From: an uncultured Methanoregulaceae archaeon
Lineage (GTDB): Archaea; Halobacteriota; Methanomicrobia; Methanomicrobiales; Methanospirillaceae
Direction: 5' to 3'
DNA length: 64,000 bases
Assembly (NCBI GenBank): GCA_963701095.1
Contig: OY969564.1
Location: 2,496,001-2,560,000 of the forward strand
This document shows positions 9,915-49,736 of this stretch, in pieces (position 1 is the stretch's first letter; every line of letters starts with the position of its first letter). The position numbers and the translations under genes are program-made. The notes under the pieces were generated by a model. It was not told the origin of the DNA and made no database searches. It saw only the letters and a list, made by a program, of their open reading frames with translations.

Positions 9915-12900
9915 GGATTATTCTTGGTATTTTTCAGACGGAAGATAAACTCAGTTCCTTTATCCCGTTGAATCGAAATCTCGGCCAGCAGCTGGTGTCG
10001 GGAAAGGAAGTTCACCAGCTTAAGGCCAAGTGATTTTGAGGAGAAGGGATCAAAACTTTCCGGAAATCCGCATCCATTATCGGAAACTCTCAACACATCG
10101 GTTCCATCTTCCTTAGCAAGAGAGACCCGGATTGTGCACGGTGCTCCGCGAAGCGCCATACAGTCAAAATCCGGTGGGAATGCGTACTTGAACGAATTTG
10201 TTACCAGTTCGTTGATAATCAGCCCAGCCGTTGTTGCCCGGTCAATACTCAGGGTTCCATCAACTCCGACATATATTTTAATGTCAGAGCGTATTCCGTA
10301 CGATTGGGCAATCTGATCGACAAGATTTTTTAGGTAGATGCTCATATCCACATTTGAAAATTTCCCGGTCCGGTAAAGGGTCTCATGGATCAGAGCCATG
10401 CTCCGGGCCCGGTTCTGGAGGTCTTTACGTAATGCACGCCCGCTTTCGGAGTCCTCATACGAACCATCAAGACTCAGAAGCGAGATGAACGCGGTTAGGT
10501 TATTCTTGACCCGGTGGTGAATCTCGGAGAGAAGGACCTCTTTTTCGGCAAGTGCCGTTTGTAGTTCCTTTTCCCGAAGGGCAAGTTCTTCGACATTTTG
10601 GTGAAGTTCCTCTTCTGATGCTGTGAGTTCTTCGTTTATTTCATTGAGTTCTGCATTTTTACGGATTACTTCATTTTCGGCTTTCTTTCTTTCGGTGATA
10701 TCGTGAGAGATCGCACCTACACCATATATCTGGCCATGAATGTCCACGAGCGGAAACTTGTTTGAGAGGAAGATATGGTGACGGTCCGGGAGATCAGCCT
10801 CTTCTTCAATTTGGATTGGTTTACCCGTGTTTACTACTTTTTTGTCGTGAGATCTCCAATAATCAGCCAACTCCTTTGGTGCAATGTCATAATCGGTTTT
10901 GCCTTTCAGCTCTTGCCTTGACTTTCCAAGCATTCTCTCCAGAGCTGAATTGATTGAAATGAACTTTCCCTCGAGATCTTTGAGAAAAATCGGAGAAGGA
11001 CTGCCTTCCATAACCTCTTCCAGGAGCCGGATGTTATTCTGCAACGCTTCCTCTCCTTTTTTGATATCCGTAATATCACGGCCGACCACTACCGAACCAA
11101 CGATTGACGCGTTTTTGTCACGGATCGGGCCGAAGCTATAACTTCCCACCCAGGTCTCACCCGTATCCTTCCGCTTGAGCCGGTATTCGATGTTAGTGGC
11201 AGATTCACCTCGCAACGCCCGCGGAACTGCCCACATATCAAGTGGTGCCAGAGTTCCATCTGCCATATACACATCAAGGAACTCAGGATATTCTGAAAGG
11301 GTTGTAGCGCATTCGTCCCGGTTCCGGAACTTGTGGAACGTGGCAAATGCATCGTTGAATTGGATGAAACGCCCCTTAGTATCTGATATAAACACGGCAT
11401 CAGTCATACTATCCAGCGCTGCATCCAGTTTCGCCCTCGTTTCCCGGAGGGCTTCTTCAGTTTTCTTGAGATCCGTGATGTCACGATTGGTTTCCAGCAC
11501 TAAATCGAAGCCATCACTGTCATGGATAAGCTGATGCCTGGAATTGACAATTATCTCACGGCCATCTTCAGTACGGTGGCGAAGCTCACCCTCCCACATG
11601 CCTTTTTCCCGAATCTCGGTCTCGATCTGGTCCCACGGTTTGGGGTGAATGGTTGCCAGTAATTTGTGAGTGATCTTGCCACACACTTCATTTTCAGTGT
11701 ACCCATACAACAGCTCGGCACCACGATTCCAGCTCTCGATGCCACCATCCAGGCGCCACACAATAATGGCATCGTACGACAGCCTCAGAAGTTCGGCCTG
11801 ACGACGCTGTATCGCCTCAGAACGCGTGAGTTCTTCGAGATTTTGGCGCATTTCTTCCTGTATAGAGCTGAGCTCTTCATTGAGTTCATTGAGATTGTCT
11901 CTTTCCAGCCTCAATTCAAATTCAGCTTTTTTGAGTCCGGTAATATCCATACCGTAAATTCGCACCCGCTGAATTTCCGGCAGATAATGAATTGACTGCT
12001 GATAGCACCGGTCACCTACCCAGACTTCCCGAAACGTCAAATTCGTCGTACCTTGGATCAATTCTGTGAAAGTACTCTCAAGATTTGCTAAGAATGGGTG
12101 ATTATTCATCTGAAGATCGGGAAACAGCCCTACAGCTGAAGGATTGTTGTACAGGATATGGCCACTAACGTCAATCTCGATAATCGGGTTTGTGTTCTTT
12201 TCCGGAAACGATGATAACCGCAGGAGGCTCGCCTCCGTTCTTTTACGTTCGGTGAGGTCACGCAGGATGCAGGTACTTATCCACGTACCTGCTACCAGGT
12301 TCCAGGAACACGCTAGTTCCAGGGGGAATAAATTGCCCTCTTTTCTCCTGGCTGAAATCTCCACTGATTTTGGAGTAGGGGACCTCGTTTCAGGAGGTTC
12401 CGGGTTCGGGAAACTGTTTTTTACGACGTTTGTGAATTCGTCCGGGATAACCCTGTGAAAAAAAGAGGATCCTGTTGCTTCGGCTGATGTGTATCCGAAC
12501 ATCTTTTCAGCGGCCCGGTTCCATACGATTATCCTGTCCTCAGAATCAAAGACTACGATGGCGTCAGTTGCAGTATCAATGAGCGTCTTGTAATTCGTCT
12601 CGGATTCACCAAAGAACCGGGATAACATTTCGCTGACCTGAATGCCAGTTCGATGAGCGCTTATGTTAAGGGAAATAAATGCGATAAGAAGATAGGCTCC
12701 CCCAATATACTGGGCTGACCTTCCGATCCAACCAAGTGGGCTACCGAGTACTGAAGGGAAATGGACTGCGAGGAGACCAAGCCCGATCAGTTCCATTCCG
12801 ATCGAGTACCAGAAGAAAAAATTCTCATGTTTCTTGAAATACAACCAGAGGAGAATCCCTGCTGAAAGGACGAAGAATTCAATCGCACTGGTGATGATGA

Positions 12901-37279: not shown

Positions 37280-39724
37280 TCAGGTCTGAGGCGCAGAGGC
37301 CAACCGGAATGCCTCCTTCGGTACAACCATTTCGAACCGCGCTCCTCTGCCCTGCTCGCCTGTTTCCCTGATCATTATAGCAGTAATATCAAGAATTTCC
37401 CGGGCAAGGAAGAGGCCCATACCGGTATTTCTTCCAAATCCCTGATCAAAAATTTTTTCCTTTTCATCAACAGGGATACCTAGACCGTCATCTTCGCAGA
37501 AAATGACCCGATTTCCATCGCGGTCTCCAACGGAGAACCGGATGGTTGTGACCCTGCCGCCATGCCGCACTGCATTGTCTATCAGATTGTAAAAGACCTT
37601 GTAGATCAGCGGATCGGCAAACACTTCCTCTGCAGCAGGAAGATCGTTTTTCACGAGGGTATCGCCTAAGAGAATATGCTTTTTTGCAGAATCGACAAGG
37701 ATATGGCAATTTTGCCATGCTGGTTCTGTAATCCCTATCTTTTCGTATTCTTTGGAAAACTGGATCATTGTATTAATACGCTGAGCAGCAAGGGTAACCT
37801 TCTTGAAATATTCATAGGATGAGGGATCCGGCAGTTGATCTTTTAGGAGTGAACTATATGCATTCAAGGTTAAAAGCTGGTTATTGATATCATGCCTGGT
37901 TATACTTGAAAGAAGATTGAGTTTTTTGTTTGCTTTAGAGAGTGCATCGCCAGTCAGTTTCCGCTCGGTGATATCCTCAATTTGGGCAGCAAAATAAAGC
38001 AATGTTCCTTGTCGATCGAGAATGGTAGTGATACGGAGCAATCCCCAGAGGATGCTTCCATCTTTCCTGATGTACCGTTTTTCTGTGCTGTATACCGGAA
38101 TTTTTCCTTCCACAAGATTCTGGATATATTGTAGATCACCGGGAAGATGATTCGGATGCGTGATATCTTTAAAGGAAAGGTCCATAAGTTCTTTTTCCGA
38201 ATATCCGGTCATGGCTATCCAGGCAGGGTTAACTGAAAAATAGTGGTAATCGGGAGTGATGAGCACCATGCCAACAGGACTGTTATGGAATATCTTACGG
38301 TATCGTTCTTCGCTCAGCCGAAGTTCCTGCTGGCTCTTATTCAGTTCATTGTAATTCTGCCGGAGTTCTTCTTCAGTCGCTGTAAGTTGCTCATAAGAAG
38401 CGTTCATTTCTTCGTTCATCGATTTCAGTTTCGCTTCAATTTCCATGCGCTCCGTTGTATCTCTTCCGACAGACTGGTATTCGATAACATGGCCATCAGC
38501 ATCAAAGGTTGCCCGGTCACTCCATTGTTGCCATCGCACCTCCCCGGAGGGCATAATGATCCGGTGGTCTAGAATTCCCACAGGATTCTCCGGGGAGAGG
38601 GCAGAAAGATGATCCTTCATCAAACGCAGATCTTCCGGAGGGATAACTACCGTATGATGAGATCCAATACATAAATTCTTGTCCAGACCAAAATACCGGC
38701 AGTATGCATCATTGACAAAGGTGAGCCTTCCGTCGACGGTAAACCGGCAAATAAATTCTGTCTGGTCTTCAACGACATTCCGGTACCGTTCCTCGCTCAA
38801 CCGTAGTTCCAGCTGGCCTTTGCTCATTTCTTCGTAATTCTGCCGGAGTTCCTCTTCAACTGTGGTCAATTCTTCAAATGCAGCATTGAGTTCCTCATTC
38901 TTGCGAAGCAGTTCATCTTCTGCCCGTTTGCGGTCAGTGATTTCCCGGATCGACTCAATTGCACCGACAACCGTACCCTTGGTATCGTAGAGCTGGGACG
39001 CAATGAACCAGAACGAGGCCCCTTTCCCGTTATTGAAATGAGGGATAGTAACCTCCGAAATGAGATTGTTTTGGTCCCTGATTACATTCTGATATTTTCC
39101 TGTGGTCACCGGGTCATTCTGGAGGACTAGATCGATCAGAACAGGACGCCGCTCACGGTAAAAGGGAAGCGCATATTCAAAATTGCCTTTTCCAAGGATT
39201 TGAGCTGCCCTGATGCCGGTCATCTTCTCCATTGCACGGTTCCATGCTATCACAAACCCGTAAGTGTCAATAGCAAAGGTTGCATCCGGAAGAAAGTTGA
39301 TGATATCGGCCTCTCTGCGCTTAAGATCCCTGATACTGATAACGGCTCTTCTCTGCTGGATCGACTGGCGGACCTTGTGTGCAAGTTCGGCAAACTGCGC
39401 TCTTGGCTCGCCGCCTTTCTGGATATAAAAGTCAGCCCCTTCATTTAATGCCTGAATAACAATCTCTTCCCGCCCTTTTCCTGTAAAAAGAATAAACGGG
39501 ATGGTATTTCCCGAAGATCTTACCATCTTTAAAAATTCTATACCGTCCATCTTTGGCATCTGGTAATCGGAGATGATTGCATCATAGTCACTTGTACTGA
39601 GAAGAGTAAGTGCATCAGGGATCGTTGTGACAATGTCGACGTTGAATTGTCCATTACATTCAAGGTAAAGTTTAGCTATTTCGAGAAGAGCTGGTTCATC
39701 GTCCACATAAAGAATTGTAAACAA
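37280..39724 (-). CDS. Receiver + 3 PAS + histidine kinase
   Basis: ILYVDDE, ISDYQMP; ITRHDINNQL; NLIDNA; EDDGLG; GMGL. Confidence 0.93.
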   Translation of the reverse strand: MFTILYVDDEPALLEIAKLYLECNGQFNVDIVTTIPDALTLLSTSDYDAIISDYQMPKMDGIEFLKMVRSSGNTIPFILFTGKGREEIVIQALNEGADFYIQKGGEPRAQFAELAHKVRQSIQQRRAVISIRDLKRREADIINFLPDATFAIDTYGFVIAWNRAMEKMTGIRAAQILGKGNFEYALPFYRERRPVLIDLVLQNDPVTTGKYQNVIRDQNNLISEVTIPHFNNGKGASFWFIASQLYDTKGTVVGAIESIREITDRKRAEDELLRKNEELNAAFEELTTVEEELRQNYEEMSKGQLELRLSEERYRNVVEDQTEFICRFTVDGRLTFVNDAYCRYFGLDKNLCIGSHHTVVIPPEDLRLMKDHLSALSPENPVGILDHRIIMPSGEVRWQQWSDRATFDADGHVIEYQSVGRDTTERMEIEAKLKSMNEEMNASYEQLTATEEELRQNYNELNKSQQELRLSEERYRKIFHNSPVGMVLITPDYHYFSVNPAWIAMTGYSEKELMDLSFKDITHPNHLPGDLQYIQNLVEGKIPVYSTEKRYIRKDGSILWGLLRITTILDRQGTLLYFAAQIEDITERKLTGDALSKANKKLNLLSSITRHDINNQLLTLNAYSSLLKDQLPDPSSYEYFKKVTLAAQRINTMIQFSKEYEKIGITEPAWQNCHILVDSAKKHILLGDTLVKNDLPAAEEVFADPLIYKVFYNLIDNAVRHGGRVTTIRFSVGDRDGNRVIFCEDDGLGIPVDEKEKIFDQGFGRNTGMGLFLAREILDITAIMIRETGEQGRGARFEMVVPKEAFRLASAPQT

Positions 39725-39903
39725 AATATGACATCCCAGATTGAACAGTAGAGGAATTTTCTTTCTGGAGTTATTATAGATTTTTTTAAATCGATGGCAT
39801 TATAAAATAGATTTATTCAGTTGTTTTTTTGCAAGTCGTTGGGGGAGAATAGTACCAAAATTGTTTGATGGTTTCGCATGCTCGCGAAATTTAAAATGGG
39901 AAA

Positions 39904-39961
39904 TGCGAGGGATGGGATTCGAACCCAAGAACTCCTGCGAGACTAGGCCCTGAACCTAGCG
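39904..39961 (-). pseudogene. 3' part of the split host tRNA-Leu(CAG) gene (left att junction)
   Basis: Reverse complement CGCTAGGTTCAGGGCCTAGTCTCGCAGGAGTTCTTGGGTTCGAATCCCATCCCTCGCA: anticodon arm, variable arm, T arm and 3' acceptor strand; no D arm or 5' strand. Confidence 0.9.
39945..39961. repeat. att core, left copy (17-bp direct repeat)
   Basis: AGGCCCTGAACCTAGCG, identical to 47671-47687; covers the anticodon loop. Confidence 0.9.
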
Positions 39962-40002
39962 GTAAACAAAGGCACTATATCTTATGATGCAGATTAAGGA
40001 TC

Positions 40003-41164
40003 ATGGAAGATGTTTTGACAAAATACAAGCGGCTCGATCCGGTCAATCATCGGTATTTCGTTGATTATCTACGGTACCTCCAGCTTCGTAACATCCGGGA
40101 AACGACGATCACAACGAAACTCTGGAAGATCTACGGATACCTGATCTGGTCAGACTTCCGGGATGCGAAGACAGCACAACCGCAGGATCTCGAAAACTTC
40201 TATCTTCAGCGGAGAAAGGAGCGATCACCCATCACGGCATTTGGCGATATCCAAGAGCTCGCCCTGTTCTTCCGTTGGTTACTCCCGGACCGTGAGCTTG
40301 TCAAGTTCAAACCGCAGAAGCCCCGGGTCGATGTGCCGCCGGAAAAGGTCTTACAATCTGATAATATACGGGGAATACTGGAATACTGCGAGTCCCAGCG
40401 GGATCGTGCCCTGGTTGCCGTGGCATGGGACAGCGCGGCCCGGATCTCCGAGCTTCTCGATATCAATATCGGGCACGTCAACTTTGACCGGTACGGTGCG
40501 GTGATCAGCGTGAGTGGTAAGACCGGGCGCCGGAATATCCGGCTCGTGAGCTCAGGTACCGGACCTTCAAGCCTGGATCAATATCCACCCTCTCAAAGGC
40601 AACCCGGACGCCCCGCTCTTTGTCACCTCCCGGAGGCGTGGGAACACGTCTCTATCCCGGCTCACCGTGCGCCGGGTGCAGAACATCTTTGCCCGGCTGG
40701 GAGATCTTGCAGGTTGTCAAAAGGACACCAATCCCCACGCATTCCGGCACGGGCGTCTTACAATCCGGGGCAAGCAGCTTACCGAGTCCGAGCTCCGGGA
40801 GTATGCCGGATGGTCCAAAGGATCGAGCATGGCCCAGGTCTATGTGCATCTGTCCAGCCGGGATATCGACAATAAGATTCTGGCGGTGGATGGGGTCAAG
40901 CCGGAAGAAGAACCGGAGGCGGACCCGATGGCAGCGCAGATATGCCCCCGGTGCAAGAAATCGAACGCCCCGGACGCAATGTACTGCGACAGATGCAGCA
41001 TGGCCCTTAATGATGAAGCACTGGATAAGATCACCGCTCTACAAAATATCAATGAGGATCCGGACGCTCATGCGGAGTACGCGGTATGGCTGAAGGCTCT
41101 GAAAGACAATCCCGCTGGCCATTACGAGCGCCGGCAAGGCATGCGGAGTACGCGGTATGGCTGA
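40003..41164 (+). CDS. Tyrosine recombinase/integrase with C-terminal zinc ribbon (frameshift near 40553)
   Basis: RDRAL...SAARISELL, GKTG.R, HAFRH, YAGW...MAQVYVH, CPRC...CDRC; removing one G at TCAGGTACC gives LVSSVPDLQAWINIHP. Confidence 0.92.
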
Positions 41165-41177
41165 AGGCTCTGAAAGA
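41069..41177 (+). repeat. Two perfect 38-bp direct repeats separated by 33 bp
   Basis: CATGCGGAGTACGCGGTATGGCTGAAGGCTCTGAAAGA at 41069-41106 and 41140-41177. Confidence 0.9.
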
Positions 41178-41200
41178 GAAGCGGGGTTGATGGGGGATAT

Positions 41201-41782
41201 TCATCGCTTTTTCCGGTAAAATCTCCCGGATTCGTCCAGCTCATATTCCTTTTTAAACTCACGCCGCTCTTCTTCAGTATTCGCTGTTTTATAGACCTCT
41301 TTTCCCTTCTCAAGAACTATAAGCCTCCACGGCCCCTCATATTCGAGATATTCTTCCTTGTTTCGTGGGTGGAGGTCCTCGTATTCTTTTAATAATTTAT
41401 GATTTTTCAACACCTTTCTAGCGTCAAAAATTCTCTTTTCCTGTTCCACCCATTCCCTTGAGAGCGCCTCGCAGGCCATCTTGTACCCTTCTTCATAACT
41501 ACGGAATTCAAAGCGGGTAGGAGCCCCTTCCGGGAGCCGATACGTGGCGAGATTAGTACCTTTCCGGGTTTTCTTTTCAACGAGCCTTTCCTCTACAAGC
41601 TCTTTGAGCAGCCGGAACAGGGTAGCCTCTGGAATATCCGGATGTTTCAGATCCTTGGCCTTGCATCCCGGGTGATCGCGGATGAACGAGAGGATCCGGG
41701 GTATGTAATTTCCAACCTCTCCCCGCCGTCCGTTTTGAAACTTTATATACCGGTTGACCCATTCCAAGTCGATAGTTTCCAT
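41201..41782 (-). CDS. Winged-helix regulator (putative element repressor)
   Basis: ILSFIRDHPG...IPEATLFRLLKELVEERLVEK...TYRL; divergent from the replication operon. Confidence 0.75.
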   Translation of the reverse strand: METIDLEWVNRYIKFQNGRRGEVGNYIPRILSFIRDHPGCKAKDLKHPDIPEATLFRLLKELVEERLVEKKTRKGTNLATYRLPEGAPTRFEFRSYEEGYKMACEALSREWVEQEKRIFDARKVLKNHKLLKEYEDLHPRNKEEYLEYEGPWRLIVLEKGKEVYKTANTEEERREFKKEYELDESGRFYRKKR

Positions 41783-41872
41783 AATTCAACGTCCTTATTA
41801 CTATCACTATGATATTATTTATGAGAGTTAATAACATTATGCCTACATAGAGAAAACCGGAGGAAAGCCTCA

Positions 41873-42019
41873 ATGAGAATTTGTTTAAATCTTCAAAAAG
41901 GACTCGTCGAACGAATCGATAAACAGCGTGGCGACATCCCACGCTCTCGGATTGTCGAACGGGCTCTTATGGAAAAGTATAGTGAAACTCCGGAAAAGGC
42001 AGTCGGGAGTGGTGAGTGA
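41873..42019 (+). CDS. Ribbon-helix-helix (CopG-like) protein, 48 aa
   Basis: Manual ORF MRICLNLQKGLVERIDKQRGDIPRSRIVERALMEKY...; GGAGG upstream; stop overlaps the next start. Confidence 0.75.
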   Translation: MRICLNLQKGLVERIDKQRGDIPRSRIVERALMEKYSETPEKAVGSGE

Positions 42020-42222
42020 TGGTAGCTTCGCAGGCAGTCCAGCACGCCACCCCCGGTTTATCTTTCGATGCAGGATCACAAAAACCCGCGTTTACTCCTA
42101 TCCGAGTACCTCATGCCACCGTTGAAGCATACCGACGATCCGAACCATTGTTCACGGAATTTCTGATTGAATCCGGGCGGGTCATTGTTGAAGGAATGCC
42201 GAACCGGCCGGAGGGGTCCTGA
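42016..42222 (+). CDS. Hypothetical protein
   Basis: Start and stop overlap both neighbours. Confidence 0.55.
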   Translation: MMVASQAVQHATPGLSFDAGSQKPAFTPIRVPHATVEAYRRSEPLFTEFLIESGRVIVEGMPNRPEGS

Positions 42223-42434
42223 TGAAGAAATGTAGCCAGCCCCGGGCAGGGCAGGCCAGAAAAGAATTGGACATGATTAGTTCAACTCGTCCAATATTAA
42301 ACTATTGCCCGGCCTGCTCTAGCGACGGCACTCTCTGTGGATATTATGAGACAGACCGATGCCCGCACCGCGGAGGAGCGTTGGAAGAACTCCATCGGAT
42401 CTTCACTGAAAAGAGGCTGGAGGATGAACCGTGA
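42222..42434 (+). CDS. Small Cys-rich protein
   Basis: CPAC..C...CPH; GGAGG upstream; coupled to the primase start. Confidence 0.55.
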   Translation: MKKCSQPRAGQARKELDMISSTRPILNYCPACSSDGTLCGYYETDRCPHRGGALEELHRIFTEKRLEDEP

Positions 42435-44886
42435 CAGCCTACGACAACATCCCGGAACCGCTAGTAGGAGCCCGCCGCTGGGTAACGTTCCGGGTAATCC
42501 CGCAGCCAGACGGATCGTTAAAAAAGATCCCGCTGACCATCCGGGGATCGATGGCAAGATCCGACACACCGGGAGACTGGTGTACCTTATCAGAGGTTCG
42601 CCGGGCGATCCAATTCGACATTGGCAATGCCGCTGCATTTGCTCTAGGCGAAGACTATCCGCTCCGGGTACTGGACCTCGACCACTGCATCGATGACCGG
42701 GGGAACCTATCGCCTCTAGCAGTACAGATCGTCAGCCGGGCCGGGGATACCTACATCGAAAAATCAGTGTCCGGTCACGGTCTACACGTTCTCGTATGGC
42801 GGTCTGAAAATAATTATCCGACCAACCCGGTCCCGGGTCTTGAAATCTATGGTGGGGCTCCGAGGTTCATAATCATGACCGGGAACTTGTGGGGGCCGAT
42901 CCCAACCAGCGATCCGGAATTCAACCGACAACTGGCATACGCGGAGGCACGAACTTGACAGCTGCCGCAGAAAACCCGACCGAACCGGAATACCGGCTGT
43001 GTTGTGACGATGTGCCGGAAGAGCCTGAAGAACTGGACGTGATGGAAGAACCGGACGAGGAGCCGGAAGAACAGGAAGAATGGGAAGAACAGACAACGGC
43101 CGCCAAAGTCACCAGAAAGCCGGAACCGGCTGTAATAATCAATCACACTACACAGCCGGCTAAAGTGCCGCAGAAGCAATCCGTGAGGCCAACACCGGCA
43201 CCTGTGGTAAATTCAGAGGCCGACCCACTGACCGGATTCTTATCGTCCCTGTCACCGTCATGTAAAGCCGAGGCTGTGAAGTATTCAGAAATTCCCGATA
43301 GGGACCTCAAGATCCCGACCGGGCAGAGCGCGACGGCAATCCTTGCGACATTCTGCAAGAAGTACGCAACCGTCCCGAAAGGCCAACGGAACCACACACT
43401 GTTTAAGTTGTCCTGCACTCTTCGCCGGTGCGGGTATGAGGAAAAAGACATCCTCGCGGGACTGTGGCAATTCTCCCGGGAGCATTGCAAGCCCCCGCAC
43501 AAGCAGAGCGACCGGAGTGATGTTGAGGAACTCACGCAACTCTCCAGGAGGGCCGCCCGCCATGTGCGGCCGGGTTTTCCTGTCGAGAAGGTGAAAGGGG
43601 AGCACACAACTGTGGCGAATGTATCGAACCCAGCCCCCGCCGCGATTGATTTGGATCCATGCGGGATTGATCCGGGAAACATCACCGGGGAAGAGATCAA
43701 AGATCTGATGTTAAAAGGGTTTCAGGCGAACTCCGCTGATATCGGATCGAATGATTCCTCCCTAATTTGCCTGTTGTCTTACATTGGAGGGCGAGAACTT
43801 ACCGGAGACGGACTCCACCTGAAAGTGTCCGGGGAATCACAAGGGGGGAAATCGATCACGATTGGTGCCGGACTGAACTGTTTACCCCCAGAGGACATAT
43901 ATGCCGGGGCCTGCACGCCGAAAGCGCCGATTTACGACAGCAGCCTTCAATCTGGAATCATCATAAAAATTGACGAATCCCAAAAATTAGAACCGGAGTT
44001 CTTGGCACTGATGAAGGAATCAGTATCGACGTTTCAAACCCCGGTCCTGTATCGAACGGTTATTGATAAAAAAACCGTAGTTAAACAGATCCCGCCGCGG
44101 ATTACCTGGGTGTTTGTCTCTGTCGATTCTATCGGGGACGAACAGGTGTTAAATCGCCTCTTCCCCCTCGGAGTTGATAGTAAGGAAAAATATCAGAACG
44201 TCACGGACTTCAGGCTGAAACGTAGGGAGGACGGGATTTCGAAAAATGCTGTGACTGACGATGTACTGCGAATACGTGCCGCCCTCCGACACTATCGTGA
44301 CAACCGGTTTAGGGTTCTGGTCCCATTTGCGTCACGGATCCGGTATAAGTCGCAGGTCAAAAGAGACCAGAGACTTCAGGAGTTTTTCGAAAATTGTCTG
44401 ATCTATCATGCAGCGCTTTGCTACCGGGAGCGGACCCACGATACCGGATCTGATGGAGTAATCACAGTTGAAGCAACCGAAGATGATTTTTATGCGGTCC
44501 TGAAACTACGGATCTTTAACCGACCCACAGAGGCAACCAACCGATTGAGTCCGTCCGAAATCCAACTGATCAAGGATATCGTGGCAAAAGGCCTCAATGG
44601 AACCACGTACCCCATCCCGCGGCAGGATCTGCTCAAGGTGGGGGCCGGTTATTCACAATCCCGACTATCCAACATCCTTAGGGGTCGCAACGGTGAAGAC
44701 AACGGGCTCTTGTGCAAGATCCCGGGATTCACTGAGGTGCAGGCGTCAACCGCAAACCGGGACGATTTGTGCCGATTCACTGAAAGGGCATATATCATCC
44801 CGGCAGAAATTTCAGATCTGGTACCGTCCAACGAGGGTATCGATGACCAATGTCAATCAATAGCCTGCCTGATCCCTCACGCCTGA
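42431..44886 (+). CDS. Replication protein: AEP primase-polymerase + PriCT-like domain + P-loop helicase (probable frameshift at G5 run 42891-42895)
   Basis: LDLDHC, EKSVSGHGLH, GLEIY...RFIIMTG; GQRNHTLFKLSC; Walker A GESQGGKS, Walker B IKIDE; one extra G joins the ORFs as NLWGADPNQR. Confidence 0.82.
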
Positions 44887-44896
44887 CCACGACGTC

Positions 44897-45170
44897 CATT
44901 ACACCGCTACACACCTTTTGGGAGAAAAGGTAAGAAAGCAACCGAGAATCCAAAAACGTTAAACAAACCCATTTAACTTTTTTCTCCTACCTTACCTTTT
45001 TTTAGAAACAGTGTGTAACATCCCTCATTTTTACGTCTGTATAGTAGTAGTGTGTAGTGGCTGTGAAATGGTGTGTATTATGCTCGGAGGCGTACTGTGT
45101 ATGGGCTGTGTAATATGCTCATCCATTTCACACCCATTTCACACCCACTACACAGCACTTTACACAGCCC
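44897..45170. other. Candidate replication origin (inverted repeats + TGTGTA/TACACA motifs)
   Basis: 21-bp IR 45051-45071/45134-45154 (20/21), 11-bp IR 45103-45113/45160-45170, 10-bp IR 44925-44934/44991-45000; directly after rep. Confidence 0.55.
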
Positions 45171-45844
45171 AGACCCCCCCGGAATCCCCCCAAGCTCCTT
45201 ACCTCGAGAGTAACTCCGACAGTAAGTCCAAAACCCTGTTCCTTGTCACGAGGAGAGCACCGACTGTAAAAAAGAACCTGCAAGAATAATAACAACTTCT
45301 AAATATTATCCATGGTAATAATCCCAAAAATACCAACCATCCGCAGACGCGATGACCCGGACCCTCCTCTACCCATAACCATCAATGTTTTTTCAAGCAC
45401 ATTCCAAAAATGGTATGCGTCTCAATTTTGGAGGTCAACCGGGCCGTAACCGGGTGATAATCGCTATACGGGCTCCGTTTGCCAAAAGTCCCGAGAGATA
45501 TTGCCCCGATTGATTCCTGGACCTGTGTCCAGGGTGCCGGGCAAAGCCCTTGGTAGCTGTGGTCCTGGTCCCGGGCCCTGCCGAGCGGTGCCCTCTCACG
45601 TCGAACTGTCGCAGAATAGTTGTTCTGCGCAATGTGACCCCTCTATATAGTGCACGTCGTAGCGTATGCATTGCGTAGAATAATGATGAATAATAGTGGG
45701 TGTACAAGTGCACTTGTTCTAGGTTCACATCCGGAAGATAGAGCGCGATATATGCCAAGACCCTCGTACAAAAATCCGGGAATTTTCACCTTTTTTAGGC
45801 CTACCCGCTTCTACAAAAATCTTAAAAAAATGGGTTTTGGGAGA

Positions 45845-46081
45845 TCAACCGCCGGTAATATTCCGGACTGCACCGGAGAGCCCAGTGGTCCCCCTGGCGA
45901 TCTGGTTTGTCACGTTCGAGTAGTCCCGGGCGGTATCCTGTTGGATGTGGGGGTTTGCTGCCGATTCATAAGCTCCGATCCCGACACAGACCACAAGCAG
46001 AGCCCCAAGAACCAAGGCAGCGATGACAATCAGGATAGAGACTGTGATCGCGACTTTCCCACAGAATGAAACCAGGCTCAT
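45845..46081 (-). CDS. Small single-pass membrane protein
   Basis: Long hydrophobic N-terminal helix; AGGTGA RBS upstream. Confidence 0.65.
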   Translation of the reverse strand: MSLVSFCGKVAITVSILIVIAALVLGALLVVCVGIGAYESAANPHIQQDTARDYSNVTNQIARGTTGLSGAVRNITGG

Positions 46082-46247
46082 TCTCTCACCTTTTGTATGG
46101 TGCTTCTTCCTCCGAGGGGATAAAGGTTGTTTTTTCGCGGGCGTCAGGTCGTAGAAAATGTGTTCAACCGGTTCACCGTGTTCACAACTGCATTTGTTTT
46201 AACTAAAGTAAAGTTTATATTGGATGGTGCAGTATAGACTATTCATT

Positions 46248-46415
46248 ATGAGAACCATCGTCAGAGGAGAGAAAACGTACTCCTTAACCTCCGTGGCAAT
46301 CCCTGCGGATTTGAAGGCCCGGGCACAGGATCACGATGTCAACATGACCCAGGTCTGTGTGAATGCACTTGAACGGGAAGTCGAACGTCTGGAGAAGGCA
46401 GGGGTGCCGGCATGA
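46248..46415 (+). CDS. Ribbon-helix-helix protein (CcdA/VapB/CopG-like)
   Basis: TSVAIPADLKARAQDHDVNMTQVCVNALEREV; TTTATAT box at ~46214-46220. Confidence 0.75.
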   Translation: MRTIVRGEKTYSLTSVAIPADLKARAQDHDVNMTQVCVNALEREVERLEKAGVPA

Positions 46416-46585
46416 GATCTGAAGAGCCCCAGACCGCTTCCGATGTGTGGTCCATCGACCGCAAACGGCAGGCAGAGACAGCCCTCCGGGAAAACGAAGC
46501 GTACCAGCGCGGTATGCTTGAAGGAATGCGGAAGTTTAACAGTACCCTGTTGAACCCCGAAAACAATCAGGAGATGGTGCAGTAA
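46412..46585 (+). CDS. Hypothetical protein, 57 aa
   Basis: Manual ORF MRSEEPQ...NQEMVQ; ATGA overlap upstream, 1 bp gap to the next ATG. Confidence 0.6.
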   Translation: MRSEEPQTASDVWSIDRKRQAETALRENEAYQRGMLEGMRKFNSTLLNPENNQEMVQ

Positions 46586-46586
46586 T

Positions 46587-47159
46587 ATGGCCGTTTCCGA
46601 AATGCAGATCGAAATTCTGCTCCGGCCCGTCCTTGCCGAGATGGAAAGAGGTTTTTTTAAAGTCGCCGATAAGCTCCAGCGGGACCAACTGGCGATCAAT
46701 GTTCAGGAGATTGAGGCAGGGTTTAGGAACGGCCAAAAAGCAACCCTGGCACAATACGCGGGCCTCAAATACTACAAAGACGACGACCCCGAACTGCGGG
46801 GCCTTCCAAAAGGGAACCGTAATATGGAACGGGCAAAGTTCAATAAGGGTGTCCGTGATGTCCTGCGAGCGATCCGGTGGTACCGCAAGCACCCAAACGC
46901 AACCGAACGAGATCTAATCCAGCTCCGGCAGATACTGCGGGATTTCCCGTCGACTCTGGATATCCGGGCGATTCCGACACTGGTGATGTGGGGTGATGTA
47001 CTTACGATGCTATCACGGGCCCAGACCGATGCAAAATTCGATCTCGATATGGAGGAGGACGCAGCTGATGAGAATATTCTCAAACCCCGGCATCCCGGTT
47101 CAAACCCGGAGGACGACGTGATGATCCGCAAGACTGATTTCCCGGAGTTAGACCGATAA
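46587..47159 (+). CDS. Hypothetical protein, 190 aa
   Basis: Coupled ORF in the operon; no motif recognised. Confidence 0.7.
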   Translation: MAVSEMQIEILLRPVLAEMERGFFKVADKLQRDQLAINVQEIEAGFRNGQKATLAQYAGLKYYKDDDPELRGLPKGNRNMERAKFNKGVRDVLRAIRWYRKHPNATERDLIQLRQILRDFPSTLDIRAIPTLVMWGDVLTMLSRAQTDAKFDLDMEEDAADENILKPRHPGSNPEDDVMIRKTDFPELDR

Positions 47160-47269
47160 TGCCCGCAAAACCGATTCGGTGCAGACAATGCGGACGGGTG
47201 TTCGCGGACCGGATGACCTTAATCCTGCACAAACCCTGTAAGGGCGTACCAGTCAAAACCAAACCATGA
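47159..47269 (+). CDS. Micro zinc-finger protein (C2HC), 36 aa
   Basis: Manual ORF MPAKPIRCRQCGRVFADRMTLILHKPCKGVPVKTKP; TAATG coupling. Confidence 0.6.
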   Translation: MPAKPIRCRQCGRVFADRMTLILHKPCKGVPVKTKP

Positions 47270-47528
47270 CCGGGGGGGCGAGCGGGTTTGTCACATTTTC
47301 CCGCGATGAACCCCGTGCCATCAAACCCCGTTACTACATTTTTTACACTCCCTGGGGGGGAAATTACAACCCCCGGGGGAATCGTGCCTTTTACCACAAT
47401 TGACTACCACCAGCATCGACAGCGGCGCCTCATAGACGCGTTTGCGCGGCGTTTCTCGTGCCGGATAGGTAAAAGTATGTAACAAGTGGAAAAAAGGCCG
47501 GTCTTAAGAGAAACAAACTTCAGAAAAG

Positions 47529-47613
47529 TGCGAGGGATGGGATTCGAACCCAAGAACTCCTACGAGATTAGGCCCTGAACCTAACGCCTTTGACCTGGCT
47601 TGGCTACCCTCGC
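47529..47613 (-). tRNA. tRNA-Leu(CAG), complete, located inside the element
   Basis: GCGAGGG/CCCTCGC-A acceptor stem, anticodon arm TTAGG-TTCAGGG-CCTAA, long variable arm, GGTTCGAATCC; 85 nt, no CCA encoded. Confidence 0.95.
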
Positions 47614-47670
47614 CCAACTCTTTTTTGAGGGATCTTGTTTTTGTGCGATGCAGCGTATAAACCCTGTCCA

Positions 47671-47687
47671 AGGCCCTGAACCTAGCG
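47671..47687. repeat. att core, right copy (17-bp direct repeat)
   Basis: AGGCCCTGAACCTAGCG, identical to 39945-39961. Confidence 0.9.
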
Positions 47688-47714
47688 CCGTTGACCTGGC
47701 TTGGCTACCCTCGC
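47671..47714 (-). pseudogene. 5' part of the split host tRNA-Leu(CAG) gene (right att junction)
   Basis: Reverse complement GCGAGGGTAGCCAAGCCAGGTCAACGGCGCTAGGTTCAGGGCCT, then non-tRNA sequence. Confidence 0.9.
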
Positions 47715-47737
47715 GCCTGTATAGATTACGCTCTTGG

Positions 47738-47746
47738 TTTAATAAA
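47738..47746 (-). promoter_or_regulatory. TATA box of the host tRNA-Leu promoter
   Basis: TTTATTAAA ~24 nt upstream of the tRNA 5' half. Confidence 0.6.
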
Positions 47747-47775
47747 GGTAAGGGAATGGGGATTGTGGCCGGAAA

Positions 47776-49607
47776 CTACTGTGAGTTCTGACCGTTTGCA
47801 GCCCGTTTGAGTTCCCGCTCCCGTAGTTCAATTCTCCGGATTTTACCTGAGATGGTTTTGGGCAGGGAATCGACAAACTCGATTGCCCGGGGATATTTAT
47901 ACGGCGCTGTCACCTTTTTTACATGACTCTGGAGATCCCGGACCAGAGCATCTGACGGACTAAACCCGGGTTTTAAGATCACAAACGCCTTGACGATCAA
48001 GCCCCGGATGTCATCGGGGGAACCAACAACTGCTGCCTCCTGGACAGAAGGATGCTCAATAAGAGCGCTTTCCACTTCGAACGGACCGATACGGTAACCC
48101 GAAGCTTTGATCACGTCATCGTCACGGCCGATGAACCAAAAATAACCGTCTTCATCCTTATACGCCTTGTCGCCAGTGTAGTACCAACCATTCACAAACG
48201 ATTTCTTGTTCTCTTCGGGATTGTTGATATACTCGGTAAACATGCCGACCGGCCACGGATCAAGCTTGATCGCAATTCTTCCCTCTTCATGGCCTCCTAC
48301 CGGGTTCCCGTGCTCATCATGAAGTTCGATTATCCACCCGGTGCTGGTTTTCCCATAGCCCCAAAACGCGCCTCCATACAGGGAAATGTCCCGATACACA
48401 GTACAGTTTCGGTCTGGCCGTAGCCTTCGTAGATGGTCAGGCCGGTTGCGTCCTTCCAGGCTTTGATAACCTCGGGGTTGAGAGGCTCGCCGGCACTTAC
48501 GCAGTGGCGGAGTTCGGAGAAGTCAAACTTGTCAAGATCGGCGAGGATCAGCATCCGGTAGATAGTAGGGGGGCAGCAGAATGTCGATATGCCGTACCGT
48601 TCGATCAGCGGCAGGAGTTCGGTCGCGTTAAACCGGCCCCGGATATCGTAAACGAAAATGGCAGTCCCCTCAAGCCACGGGCCGTAGAGTTTCCCCCATG
48701 CACTTTTTCCCCAACCGGTATCAGAAAAGGTGAAATGGAGGTCGTTCTGGCGGACATCGTGCCAGAACCGGGAGGTCACCATATGACCAAGTGCATAGCT
48801 CTGACTGTGCAGCACCATCTTTGCTTCCCCGGTAGTCCCTGAAGTAAAGAAGATGAGCATTGGATCGGTAGCTTTGGTTCTTTTCATACCGGGAAGGTTA
48901 ACCAGTTTTGCCGAGACCGGTGCCGGGTAGTCGAGTTCAACTGGGTAACTGATCCATCCGGATCTTTTGCCATCAATGAGGAAGCGGCAGGTCAGGGAAG
49001 GGCACTGGCTTGCAATAGCATCAATTTTATCTGCAAATTCTTCGGACGTGATCACCATCTTGATATCAGCCGCGTTAATCCGGTACTTCAGGTCGTGTTC
49101 GGTAAGCATGGTCGGGGCCGGGCAGTAGACCGCTCCGCGTTTAATGAGGGCAATAGTGGCAATCCACCACTCCGGTACCCGGGGCAGCATAATGAGAACA
49201 CGGTCGCCTTTGTTCACACCGTACTTGATAAGCATATTAACGACCTGGTTGGAGAGACGCATCAGGTCCCAGAATGTGTATTTCTTTTCGTCGCCTTTCT
49301 GGTTCGTCCAGATCATGGCAAGCTTGTTCCTGTCTTTCTTTGCCCATGCGTCAATAACATCAAAACCGAAGTTGAAGTACTCGGGAACCTCGATATGGAA
49401 ATCTCGGTAGGTAGCGTCGTAATCGCGCATGTTCGGCCCGGGTGCTCCGGTATCCGGAAGGGTACATGCGAGGCTGGATGTATTTGTAGTCAGGTGACCG
49501 GAACAAGCCTCTGCAATCCAGTCAGAACGCGAAATCTTCCGATGTTCACAGACCTTATCGATACTACTTGTCAGGGTATCGTCCATGGAAATTGAATACC
49601 GCACCAT
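47776..49607 (-). CDS. Acyl-CoA synthetase (ACSM-like) with N-terminal RHH domain (frameshift near 48335)
   Basis: FTSGTTG, YGQTET, GDKA..DEDG, SGKIRR; N-terminus MVRYSISMDDTLTSSIDKVCEHRKISRSDWIAEA. Confidence 0.88.
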
Positions 49608-49736
49608 ACATTTCGTTTTGTTGGTGCACTTTATCAGTATTTTGCTTTTCTCATGAACCAAAATATCATATGGTGCTATTTTCTGGTGCTCTCAACTAAA
49701 AAATGCTAAAACTAAAAGAGATTGAAAAAGTGATTC

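Follow-up and report, generated by a model that had tools for sequence, protein, structure and literature searches.

Known Systems of Integration into tRNA Genes

The system closest to the locus described here is tRNA-dependent lysogeny, as reported by Guerrero-Bustamante and Hatfull (2024, mBio, PMC10865867) for the phages Fionnbharth, LeBron and Gaia (tRNA-Leu-CAA). The parts of that paper drawn on here describe a tyrosine integrase acting on an attB inside a tRNA gene, a common core of only 8–17 bp, and close relatives with different tRNA targets, each of which brings its own cognate tRNA. The Fionnbharth tRNA lies partly over the end of another gene; a promoter of its own has been demonstrated, and the requirement for the phage tRNA was established by genetics. 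Canonical integration in archaea is also directed at tRNA genes, with the anticodon loop and flanking stem as the likely overlap or core and the integrase beside the att site and, in the relevant portions of a 2021 review of archaeal tyrosine recombinases (PMC8371274), it is said always to restore the gene. The same portions cover the SSV-type elements, whose tyrosine recombinases likewise act on tRNA genes, SSV1 at the anticodon loop. Finally, excerpts of Sugahara et al. 2012 (PMC3293823) describe, in an archaeal population, a recombinase-bearing element that leaves behind a 5' tRNA fragment beside a complete tRNA gene, a case that involves intron gain and a scattered tRNA-Thr fragment and, in those excerpts, neither a defined att core nor a cognate-replacement cassette. 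In the literature searched, no description was found of an archaeal element that splits a tRNA gene and brings the replacement.

The window analyzed here is a stretch of 64,000 nucleotides from an uncultured Methanoregulaceae archaeon (contig OY969564.1). We put at about 85% the probability that its positions 39962–47670 are a plasmid-like integrative element of 7.7 kb in a Methanoregula-like archaeon, one that uses tRNA-dependent integration with a replacement cargo tRNA. The system is an archaeal counterpart of bacteriophage tRNA-dependent lysogeny, in the form of a compact integrase–attP–tRNA cassette. As in the phages, a tyrosine integrase uses an attB inside a tRNA gene, close relatives with different targets each carry their own cognate tRNA, and no tRNA is rebuilt because the common core is short, at 9–18 bp in the archaeal clade. 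Unlike the phage systems, the hosts are archaea, the integrase is from an archaeal clade marked by a zinc ribbon at the C terminus, the entire clade examined uses this design on all five tRNA-Leu isoacceptors, and the cargo lies 28–101 nt from the attP core, co-oriented with the target in one compact cassette, which is not how the Fionnbharth tRNA is placed. Among the archaeal carriers is a plasmid-like element of 7.7 kb that has no virion genes, and the tRNA requirement, which genetics established in the phages, is inferred for the archaeal element.

The differences from the other archaeal systems are equally plain. In canonical integration the tRNA part of attP regenerates an intact gene at one junction, whereas neither junction of the window element is a tRNA and a separate full gene is supplied. 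The attP of SSV-type elements lies within the integrase gene, which is split on integration; here it precedes the integrase start by about 45 nt, and a second, integrated element in the same genome has an uninterrupted integrase open reading frame of 371 aa. In comparison with the case of Sugahara et al., the present one has its two halves, its two junctions and its free form all defined.

The Split tRNA-Leu(CAG) Gene

Read on the minus strand, the locus consists of a 5' half (47714–47671), a full tRNA-Leu(CAG) (47613–47529) and, at the far end of the element, a 3' half (39961–39904), with the following features.

47738..47746, minus strand: TATA-like box TTTATTAAA, from sequence reading, 24–32 nt upstream of the 5' half
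47671..47714, minus strand: 5' half (44 nt) of the native host tRNA-Leu(CAG), attL side; its terminal 17 nt (47687–47671) are the core
47614..47670, minus strand: spacer of 57 nt between core and cargo tRNA, containing GGTTTATAC
47529..47613, minus strand: complete cargo tRNA-Leu(CAG), anticodon stem TTAGG/CCTAA, from ARAGORN and Rfam (RF00005, 48.7 bits)
39962..47670, no strand: integrated plasmid-like element, 7,709 bp counting the core once, from homology ends, the joint contig and G+C
39962..40002, no strand: attP arm and integrase promoter region, between core and integrase start
39904..39961, minus strand: displaced 3' half (58 nt) of the native host tRNA-Leu(CAG), attR side; its initial 17 nt (39961–39945) are the core

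The original prediction had described this three-piece arrangement and its 17-bp overlap, and it was correct to the base. The exact block common to both halves is CGCTAGGTTCAGGGCCT, and a repeat search recovered both repeat families (D2, 61 nt, 93%; D4, 44 nt, 95%). ARAGORN called a single tRNA in the window, a tRNA-Leu(CAG) at 47528–47613 on the minus strand, and Rfam scored the cargo well above the gathering score of 29. Neither program called a tRNA at either junction of the element, with zero Rfam calls for the two halves at E ≤ 1. Motifs of the TTTATTAAA type also precede the intact gene or the half in relatives, and the box is probably the promoter of the native tRNA-Leu(CAG), while GGTTTATAC in the spacer may be a TATA box belonging to the cargo. 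The spacer and the 5' half together gave a folding z of −3.1. The G+C of the element is higher than that of its left flank.

The unoccupied site can be seen in relatives. Downstream of the orthologous AMP-binding gene, nine of eleven loci carry a single intact tRNA-Leu(CAG), and the other two (G008 and G013) carry a half and a different full tRNA. The joined halves match, at 85/85 positions, the intact gene that G018 has at the orthologous site, and this places the split-tRNA layout far beyond chance and supports the claim that integration splits the host gene. Two observations had been named in advance as counting against that claim: a half and a full tRNA in tandem, which was absent from element-free relatives, and a native T27–A43 allele at the site, which was absent among the native genes seen in the genus.

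Misassembly or local duplication might also have produced the 5' half and spacer (47614–47714), in a genome that looks indel-prone (split integrase, split primase and split neighboring AMP-binding gene) and is 86% complete for a single contig. The probability of this is negligible, as the half/spacer/full layout is repeated in 10 other elements from independent assemblies, and on an independent contig the integrase arm continues into the core, the spacer and the full tRNA.

The attP Joint and a Probable Free Form

The independent contig (record 22) is from run X7, a metagenome from a different study, in which the attP joint is represented by one contig of 332 nt. It joins 47523–47670 directly to 39945–40067, with 17 letters that fit both sides, and so leaves 57 bp between the core and the full tRNA. 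The 47670→39945 joint could be the attP of an unintegrated circle, and a tandem array could equally yield it. Seven related loci are in the attP form, with the order integrase start, about 45 nt, an anticodon-loop mimic, about 50 nt and a full tRNA-Leu; three of them are on viral contigs, and the anticodon of the mimic is that of the full tRNA. The expectation that attP holds only a minimal core was thus upheld, by the X7 joint and by the seven loci alike.

These data also bear on whether the integration was canonical after all, with the full tRNA as a hybrid of a host 5' half and an attP 3' half and the extra 5' half as debris of another event. The full copy and the 3' half do form a 61-nt repeat of 93% identity, resembling an attL/attR pair. 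However, the full copy has a non-host 5' part (A24, T27) while the lone 5' half is of host type, the attP forms hold a whole tRNA beside a short core, the empty sites have a single gene, and two elements at different host sites have homologous spacers and full tRNAs. Taken with these observations, a canonical origin is very improbable.

The Integrase and Its Clade

The integrase is the gene next to the core.

40003..41164, plus strand: tyrosine integrase with a C-terminal CPRC...C..C zinc ribbon, from Phage_integrase and phrog_1 matches

Its start lies 41 nt downstream of the core, and in relatives the attP arm adjoins either host 3' halves (attR) or spacer and cargo (attP). Tyrosine recombinases use the catalytic residues R, K, H-x-x-R, H/W and Y. 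R147, K173, H245, R248, W270 and Y280 are invariant among four homologues of 42–71% identity, and we read them as the putative catalytic set, which would place the protein in the tyrosine recombinase superfamily. An extra G at about 40555 splits the window copy into two frames (40003–40875 and 40667–41164), and there is a 71-bp tandem duplication at 41069–41180. Both are missing from the contigs of other runs; the extra G is absent in contigs of four runs, in which copies of the second element are also present. The window copy is out of frame and may be immobile, or the frame may have been lost to an indel of the assembly.

A survey of 58 integrase loci found 47 with an attR-type junction to a tRNA-Leu 3' half, seven in the attP form and four that were uninformative. 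All five tRNA-Leu isoacceptors are represented among the 47 junctions, and the 54 loci with a junction or an attP are distributed as CAG 15, GAG 7, TAG 12, TAA 6 and CAA 14. Both ends could be seen in 11 of the 47 junction loci, and all 11 complete elements have the 5' half, a spacer of 28–101 nt and a co-oriented full cargo, with attP/attB identity blocks of 9–18 bp; this is the half/full/half layout that the original prediction had proposed to look for among integrase homologues. At one locus (G034/L091), the cargo and 5' half were not found within 50 kb beyond the integrase. The target and cargo anticodons are the same in all 21 visible cases (11 complete, 7 attP and 3 partial).

The second element of the same genome, at 315.9–324.0 kb, is a mosaic relative that splits the native tRNA-Leu(GAG); its joined halves equal the gene of G004 at 85/85 positions. 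It is related to the window element at the two ends only, and the homology between them ends at the outer ends of the halves, with the spacers 84% homologous. The two cargos differ only at position 34 of the anticodon (C34/G34). With one core base and one cargo-anticodon base between them, the two elements amount to a natural experiment in att specificity.

The Cargo tRNA and the Probable Course of Integration

The claim that a cognate tRNA is supplied was borne out genome-wide, since the cargo is the sole intact tRNA-Leu(CAG) gene in the 2.63-Mb genome and the anticodons match throughout the clade. CUG makes up 20% of the leucine codons. A tRNA-Leu(UAG) gene at genome position 233010 might read CUG by wobble, so that the cargo may be helpful rather than essential. 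The GAG element, too, shares its genome with another GAG gene, at genome position 187357.

This has to be weighed against cargo carried for another purpose, such as codon supply in replication or a decoy or replacement against tRNA-cleaving defenses, with replacement of the split gene being incidental. Roles of this kind are discussed for phage-borne tRNAs in parts of PMC10865867, and the possible service of tRNA-Leu(UAG) to host CUG codons would leave room for them. Against this, the cargo anticodon is always that of the target, across five isoacceptors, and the cargo always lies 28–101 nt from the core and co-oriented with the target; such couplings of anticodon and position are expected under complementation and not under general codon supply, which leaves another purpose improbable.

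Under tRNA-dependent integration, the tyrosine integrase would recombine the minimal attP with the native tRNA-Leu(CAG) gene. The attP match covers tRNA positions 25–41 (17 bp) and is centered on the 7-nt anticodon loop, within which strand exchange probably occurs. The gene is not rebuilt because attP carries no usable 3' half; insertion would leave the 5' half at the host promoter and move the 3' half 7.7 kb away to the integrase end. The cargo, with the same anticodon and the orientation of the target, 57 bp behind the attP core, would then have the host tRNA promoter about 100 nt upstream and could take over decoding, with transcription presumably from the captured host promoter, the TATA-like box of the spacer or both. 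Judged from sequence, the cargo is likely to be expressed and charged and to complement the lost gene.

Leucyl-tRNA synthetase does not read the anticodon. As leucine identity is independent of it, retargeting by single-base changes is possible, and a single base change in each of two places, the attP core and the cargo anticodon, would probably suffice to move an element to another isoacceptor. A wider reading, to which we give somewhat less than an even chance, is that a portable integrase–attP–tRNA cassette of about 1.4 kb shuttles, in methanogens and Methanoperedens, between plasmids and tailed viruses, retargets among the five isoacceptors by such coupled changes, leaves its hosts dependent and steadily replaces native tRNA-Leu genes in an addiction-like manner. 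Decay of the integrase or mutation of a host half would make the host dependent on the element's tRNA, and native tRNA-Leu genes would gradually be exchanged for foreign ones by insertions that select for themselves. The present genome might serve as an example, with its native CAG and GAG genes split, a further, non-syntenic GAG gene with a cargo-type stem and several decayed cargo-like pseudo-tRNAs.

A clade of integrases that does not restore the target gene carries tRNA-dependent lysogeny beyond actinobacteriophages, to plasmids and tailed viruses of archaea, and gives a concrete function to tRNA genes on archaeal mobile elements. The hosts concerned are of the methane cycle (Methanoregula, Methanoculleus, Methanosarcina, Methanococcoides and Methanoperedens, as named in the records), and tRNA-Leu genes in these genomes should be annotated with caution, as some may have been brought in by an element to replace the native ones. 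A short cassette with selection against its loss is also a candidate marker-light integration vector for methanogen genetics.

The Anticodon-Stem Swap

The cargo differs from the joined halves at exactly four places (47589, 47584, 47568 and 47562), those that had been predicted, and 47584 and 47568 together are a C27–G43 to T27–A43 swap. The further proposal, that the swap keeps the integrase from using the cargo as a second attB, fared less well. In the second element, cargo and host gene differ by nothing but the swap (2/85), the cargo anticodon stem is unlike that of the host in all 11 complete elements, and neither the CAG nor the GAG sites of the genus showed a native TTAGG/CCTAA gene. 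Yet five of the 11 cargos contain the whole attP/attB identity block, so protection is unsupported as a general rule; the anticodon loop, the likely overlap region, is the same in cargo and host, a native host gene with the TTAGG/CCTAA stem exists (L097), and native genes also vary at positions 27–28 and 42–43. Since the swap is common to one cargo lineage (L1, L2, L061 and G003), it counts as one event, and we consider a protective adaptation unlikely.

The Body of the Element

Three further features lie between the integrase and the cargo.

41201..41782, minus strand: 193-aa open reading frame with a weak helix-turn-helix match (Pfam HTH_IclR/MarR_2, E about 0.007, below cut-off)
42431..44886, plus strand: replication protein in two overlapping frames, from PHROG and Pfam
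46224..46415, plus strand: 63-aa open reading frame with a weak CcdA-antitoxin-like match (Pfam CcdA, 2e-4)

PHROGs and Pfam identified a primase and an integrase, and no virion genes, in the window element, which thus works like the tRNA-dependent lysogeny family without being a lysogenic virus; the relatives L140 and L142 have tail genes alongside the same cassette. The replication protein matches PHROG primase families (4e-23) and PriCT_1 (1.8e-7), with a primase-polymerase domain at 42431–42958 and a 665-aa open reading frame with the PriCT_1 domain at 42889–44886, and its split may be an assembly indel. The 193-aa product is a possible regulator, and the CcdA match of the 63-aa product reached 22.1 bits, close to the cut-off of 22.4.

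Split host gene and complete element-borne tRNA

The window element lies between a 5' and a 3' half of the host tRNA-Leu(CAG) gene and brings a complete tRNA-Leu of its own, the cargo. It had been proposed from the sequence that the two halves overlap by 17 bp and that the full copy differs from them at four positions, and reading of the minus strand confirmed this half/full/half layout in every part, the differences from the joined halves lying at 47589, 47584, 47568 and 47562. Both repeat families were also picked up by a repeat finder.

Features of the split gene and its surroundings (window coordinates)
47746-47738, minus strand: TTTATTAAA preceding the 5' half (sequence reading)
47714-47671, minus strand: 5' half of tRNA-Leu(CAG), 44 nt (sequence reading)
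39961-39904, minus strand: 3' half of tRNA-Leu(CAG), 58 nt (sequence reading)
Core common to both halves: CGCTAGGTTCAGGGCCT, an exact 17-bp overlap
47776-48399 and 48330-49661, minus strand: split host AMP-binding enzyme gene, two overlapping frames
42431-42958 and 42889-44886, plus strand: split element primase, two overlapping frames

A single tRNA was called in the window by ARAGORN, a tRNA-Leu(CAG) at 47528-47613 on the minus strand, and 47529-47613 scored 48.7 bits with Rfam, the only tRNA hit it gave within 39500-48000 up to E=1. The 5' half together with the first 31 nt of the spacer (47640-47714, minus strand) folds unusually well (z = -3.1), and MFE folding yields no cloverleaf. In the spacer, the stretch ending in ...GCTGCATCGCA forms pairs with the 5' acceptor/D side, and its end resembles a tRNA 3' end; speculatively, attP (the unintegrated joint) may once have had a complete 3' half of which this stretch is left over.

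The AMP-binding enzyme gene upstream of the 5' half is conserved across the genus, and just downstream of it one intact tRNA-Leu(CAG) is found in nine of 11 relatives' loci, the other two (genomes G008 and G013) having a 5' half and then a different full tRNA. The intact gene of the relative G018 is identical to the window halves joined at the core (85/85), so the halves are, judged by sequence identity, the native gene split in place, as had been predicted for integration here. An intact host gene of the C27-G43 type, also expected at the empty site of relatives, was seen there, with the TTAGG/CCTAA stem in none of the nine native genes. Past the 3' half comes a PAS histidine kinase. Nothing matching this flank follows the intact gene in G018, G004 and G003, and being non-syntenic in these three relatives, the flank gives no empty-site test. 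In G003 the orthologous site has a different integrase, 31% identical (C63:26266-26970, locus L046), directly next to its intact tRNA-Leu(CAG), and is therefore a hotspot used by other element types.

A second element and the attP joint

The same genome (G000) holds a second half/full/half set outside the window, at C1:315938-324000 (315.9-324.0 kb; loci L002, L006, L021 and L049), which splits the native tRNA-Leu(GAG) gene and whose halves have an 18-bp core in common. Joined, these halves equal (85/85) the intact gene that G004 has at the orthologous site. Among relatives, the GAG site has a single intact gene in 10 of 11 loci; G003, the remaining locus, has a half plus a full tRNA that matches the second element's cargo exactly. 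Between the two cargo tRNAs in G000 the first anticodon base is the one difference, and the second cargo differs from the host gene it replaced solely by the swap of C27-G43 to T27-A43. The integrase of the second element, at genome 316037-317152, is an uninterrupted ORF of 371 aa. Rejoining of the halves at the RNA level, as a split tRNA, was considered and set aside, as the second element offers only 7 bp of arm complementarity and no supporting evidence was found.

The window region and this second region are alike at two places only, the integrase ends (94.5% over 1,207 bp) and the tRNA ends (84% over about 540 bp). On either side it breaks off precisely where the tRNA halves end outwards, and the element limits are therefore 39962-47670. 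Logan contigs of four metagenome runs were compared with 38500-49000 at a 90% threshold, and one 332-nt contig, from a run (X7) of another study than the best-matching run, follows 47523-47670 and then 39945-40067. This joint is the attP junction of the window element, as a circle or a tandem array. In this contig 57 bp separate the core from the complete tRNA, and the view that attP has only a minimal core was borne out, the contig joining 47670 to 39945 across 17 letters that fit both sides. A joint from 39943 to 47523 in run X5 and loose ends at 39943, 47613 and 47615 came from other tRNA-Leu genes sharing the T-arm, and were not used. Among the contig pieces listed, none covers the full stretch.

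Survey of related integrases

A search with an alignment of four integrases (42-71% identity) yielded 79 loci on genome contigs and 16 on viral contigs. The 58 closest (L061-L112, L134 and L140-L144) were surveyed by reading, on the strand opposite to the integrase, the region ahead of its start; the 26 genome loci that are more distant, and 11 viral matches that are weak, were excluded. The integrated form, in which the element arm runs into a tRNA-Leu anticodon loop with its 3' half, was present at 47 of the 58 loci, and the unintegrated form (arm, short anticodon-loop mimic, spacer of about 50 nt and complete tRNA-Leu) at seven, with four loci uninformative. By reading of the junction sequences, the 54 informative loci were assigned to anticodons CAG (15), CAA (14), TAG (12), GAG (7) and TAA (6).

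Both ends were seen in 11 elements: two in G000, and those of G008 (duplicated as L089), G015 (duplicated as L064), G025, L061, L083, L085, L097, G033/L084 and G032/L071. Every one of these has the half/full/half layout with a cognate cargo: behind the 5' half come 28-101 nt of spacer and then a co-oriented full tRNA with the same anticodon. The identity blocks measure 9-18 bp and have the anticodon loop at their centre. In 21 of 21 cases (11 complete, seven unintegrated and three partial, the last being G003, G013 and L063) the cargo has the anticodon of its target. At G031/L066 and G035/L093 the contig ends before the far end of the element, and at G034/L091 there is no tRNA-Leu piece within 50 kb past the integrase.

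On a quick tree (82 rows, with 4 short rows dropped), near relatives have different targets and the isoacceptor label needs at least 17 changes. Ten of the distant integrases (L114, L115, L117, L121, L125, L128, L131, L137, L138 and L139), one well-supported clade on this tree, are directly preceded by an intact co-oriented tRNA gene for Thr, Arg, Cys, Glu or Ser. The arrangement resembles integration of the ordinary tRNA-restoring kind, so that the design with a cargo tRNA may be limited to the tRNA-Leu clade.

The window element has genes for the integrase and for a primase-polymerase with a PriCT_1 region, plus two ORFs with weak matches, one helix-turn-helix and one CcdA-like. Virion genes are absent, and the element is thus plasmid-like. 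On the viral contigs L142 and L140 the unintegrated cassette stands alongside tape-measure, Dit, minor-tail and tail-fibre genes. Elements range in size from 7.7 kb to about 38 kb, and the hosts of the clade, by record titles, are Methanomicrobiales, Methanosarcinales and Methanoperedens. Among them, the Methanosarcina loci L105 and L107 have members of the clade on tRNA-Leu(TAA/CAA). Contigs with the archaeal integrase and tRNA-Leu junctions also occur in bins titled as bacteria (L062, L079, L082, L090, L095, L116 and L129; titles Dehalococcoidia, Anaerolineales, WOR-3, Oscillospiraceae, Bacteroides, Thermotogaceae and Proteobacteria), and are probably mis-binned mobile-element contigs.

Proposed mechanism and relation to known systems

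Strand exchange would take place within the anticodon loop, described as the usual 7-bp overlap for tRNA-targeting tyrosine recombinases (PMC8371274). Transcription of the cargo would start at the captured host promoter, the 5' half and spacer then being trimmed off as a leader, and/or at a GGTTTATAC motif in the spacer, and retargeting would proceed via paired single-base changes. The original suggestion that the stem swap shields the cargo from the integrase is unsupported as a rule: the whole identity block lies inside the cargo in five of the 11 complete elements, the swap is confined to one cargo lineage, and the host of L097 has a native TTAGG/CCTAA gene.

The anatomy, the empty sites, the attP form and the clade-wide coupling of target and cargo are observed. 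The design matches that of tRNA-dependent lysogeny in actinobacteriophages, where the core measures 8-17 bp and the phage brings a cognate tRNA that genetics has shown to be required (PMC10865867); here, as read from sequence, the cargo would complement the lost host gene. A 2021 review of archaeal tyrosine recombinases has all archaeal events restoring the gene (PMC8371274). Judged by title or abstract, no paper in the literature searched that names tRNA-dependent lysogeny together with archaea is on an archaeal system, and the matches listed for Methanoregula proviruses, for tRNA-Leu/integrase/methanogen proviruses and for non-restoring archaeal integrases include no such report; descriptions outside the literature searched are possible, and this is the first archaeal case of tRNA-dependent integration that could be found. 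The design is in use throughout the clade on five isoacceptors, as a contiguous integrase-attP-tRNA cassette common to plasmid-like elements and tailed viruses.

Frame breaks and assembly quality

Relative to the second element, the window integrase is out of frame through an extra G near 40555, which is absent from contigs of all four runs, where second-element copies also match at the 90% threshold. A 71-bp tandem duplication (41069-41180; 41-nt copies at 98%) at the 3' end of the integrase gene is missing from contigs of three of the four runs (X2, X5 and X7; joint 41068 to 41140). The split primase and split host AMP-binding gene, with a completeness of 86% for a one-contig genome, suggest assembly indels as a live explanation for the frame breaks in all three genes.

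Possible host dependence on the cargo and probable relics of earlier elements

The genome-wide scan for another tRNA-Leu(CAG) gave none: by ARAGORN, a tRNA-Leu profile and Rfam alike, the cargo is the only intact gene of this kind in the genome. A second 'tRNA-Leu(CAG)' called by ARAGORN at genome position 2214249 was rejected, being without Rfam support. In ORFs of at least 400 codons, CUG makes up 20% of Leu codons, and CUC and CUU together 61%. CUG might also be covered by tRNA-Leu(UAG). Loss of the element is plausibly costly, its cargo being the one CAG gene. The displaced half of the host gene has itself mutated in L083 and L085, so that precise excision would no longer restore the gene.

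An extra intact tRNA-Leu(GAG) with the TTAGG/CCTAA stem (G000:C1:187357-187441; L163 858-942; Rfam 39.2 bits) stands beside a tRNA-Ser(TGA); relatives keep the tRNA-Ser region with no Leu gene next to it, and so the extra gene may be a cargo copy retained from an older element. Four decayed tRNA-Leu-like pieces in G000:C1, at 371585-371662 (plus), 1070261-1070340 (minus), 1099828-1099894 (plus) and 171870-171910 (minus), comprise two cargo-like pseudo-tRNAs preceded by spacer-like sequence and two 5' halves near other integrase genes (170107 and 1097843), and probably remain from earlier elements. Inside related elements, G033 has a Leu-like pseudo-tRNA whose anticodon loop is odd about 120 nt behind its cargo (L157 12978-13059), and L085 has a lone Leu-like 3' fragment (12316-12358) at a distance of about 1 kb from its cargo; nested or tandem insertions into cargo tRNAs may have left these extra pieces.
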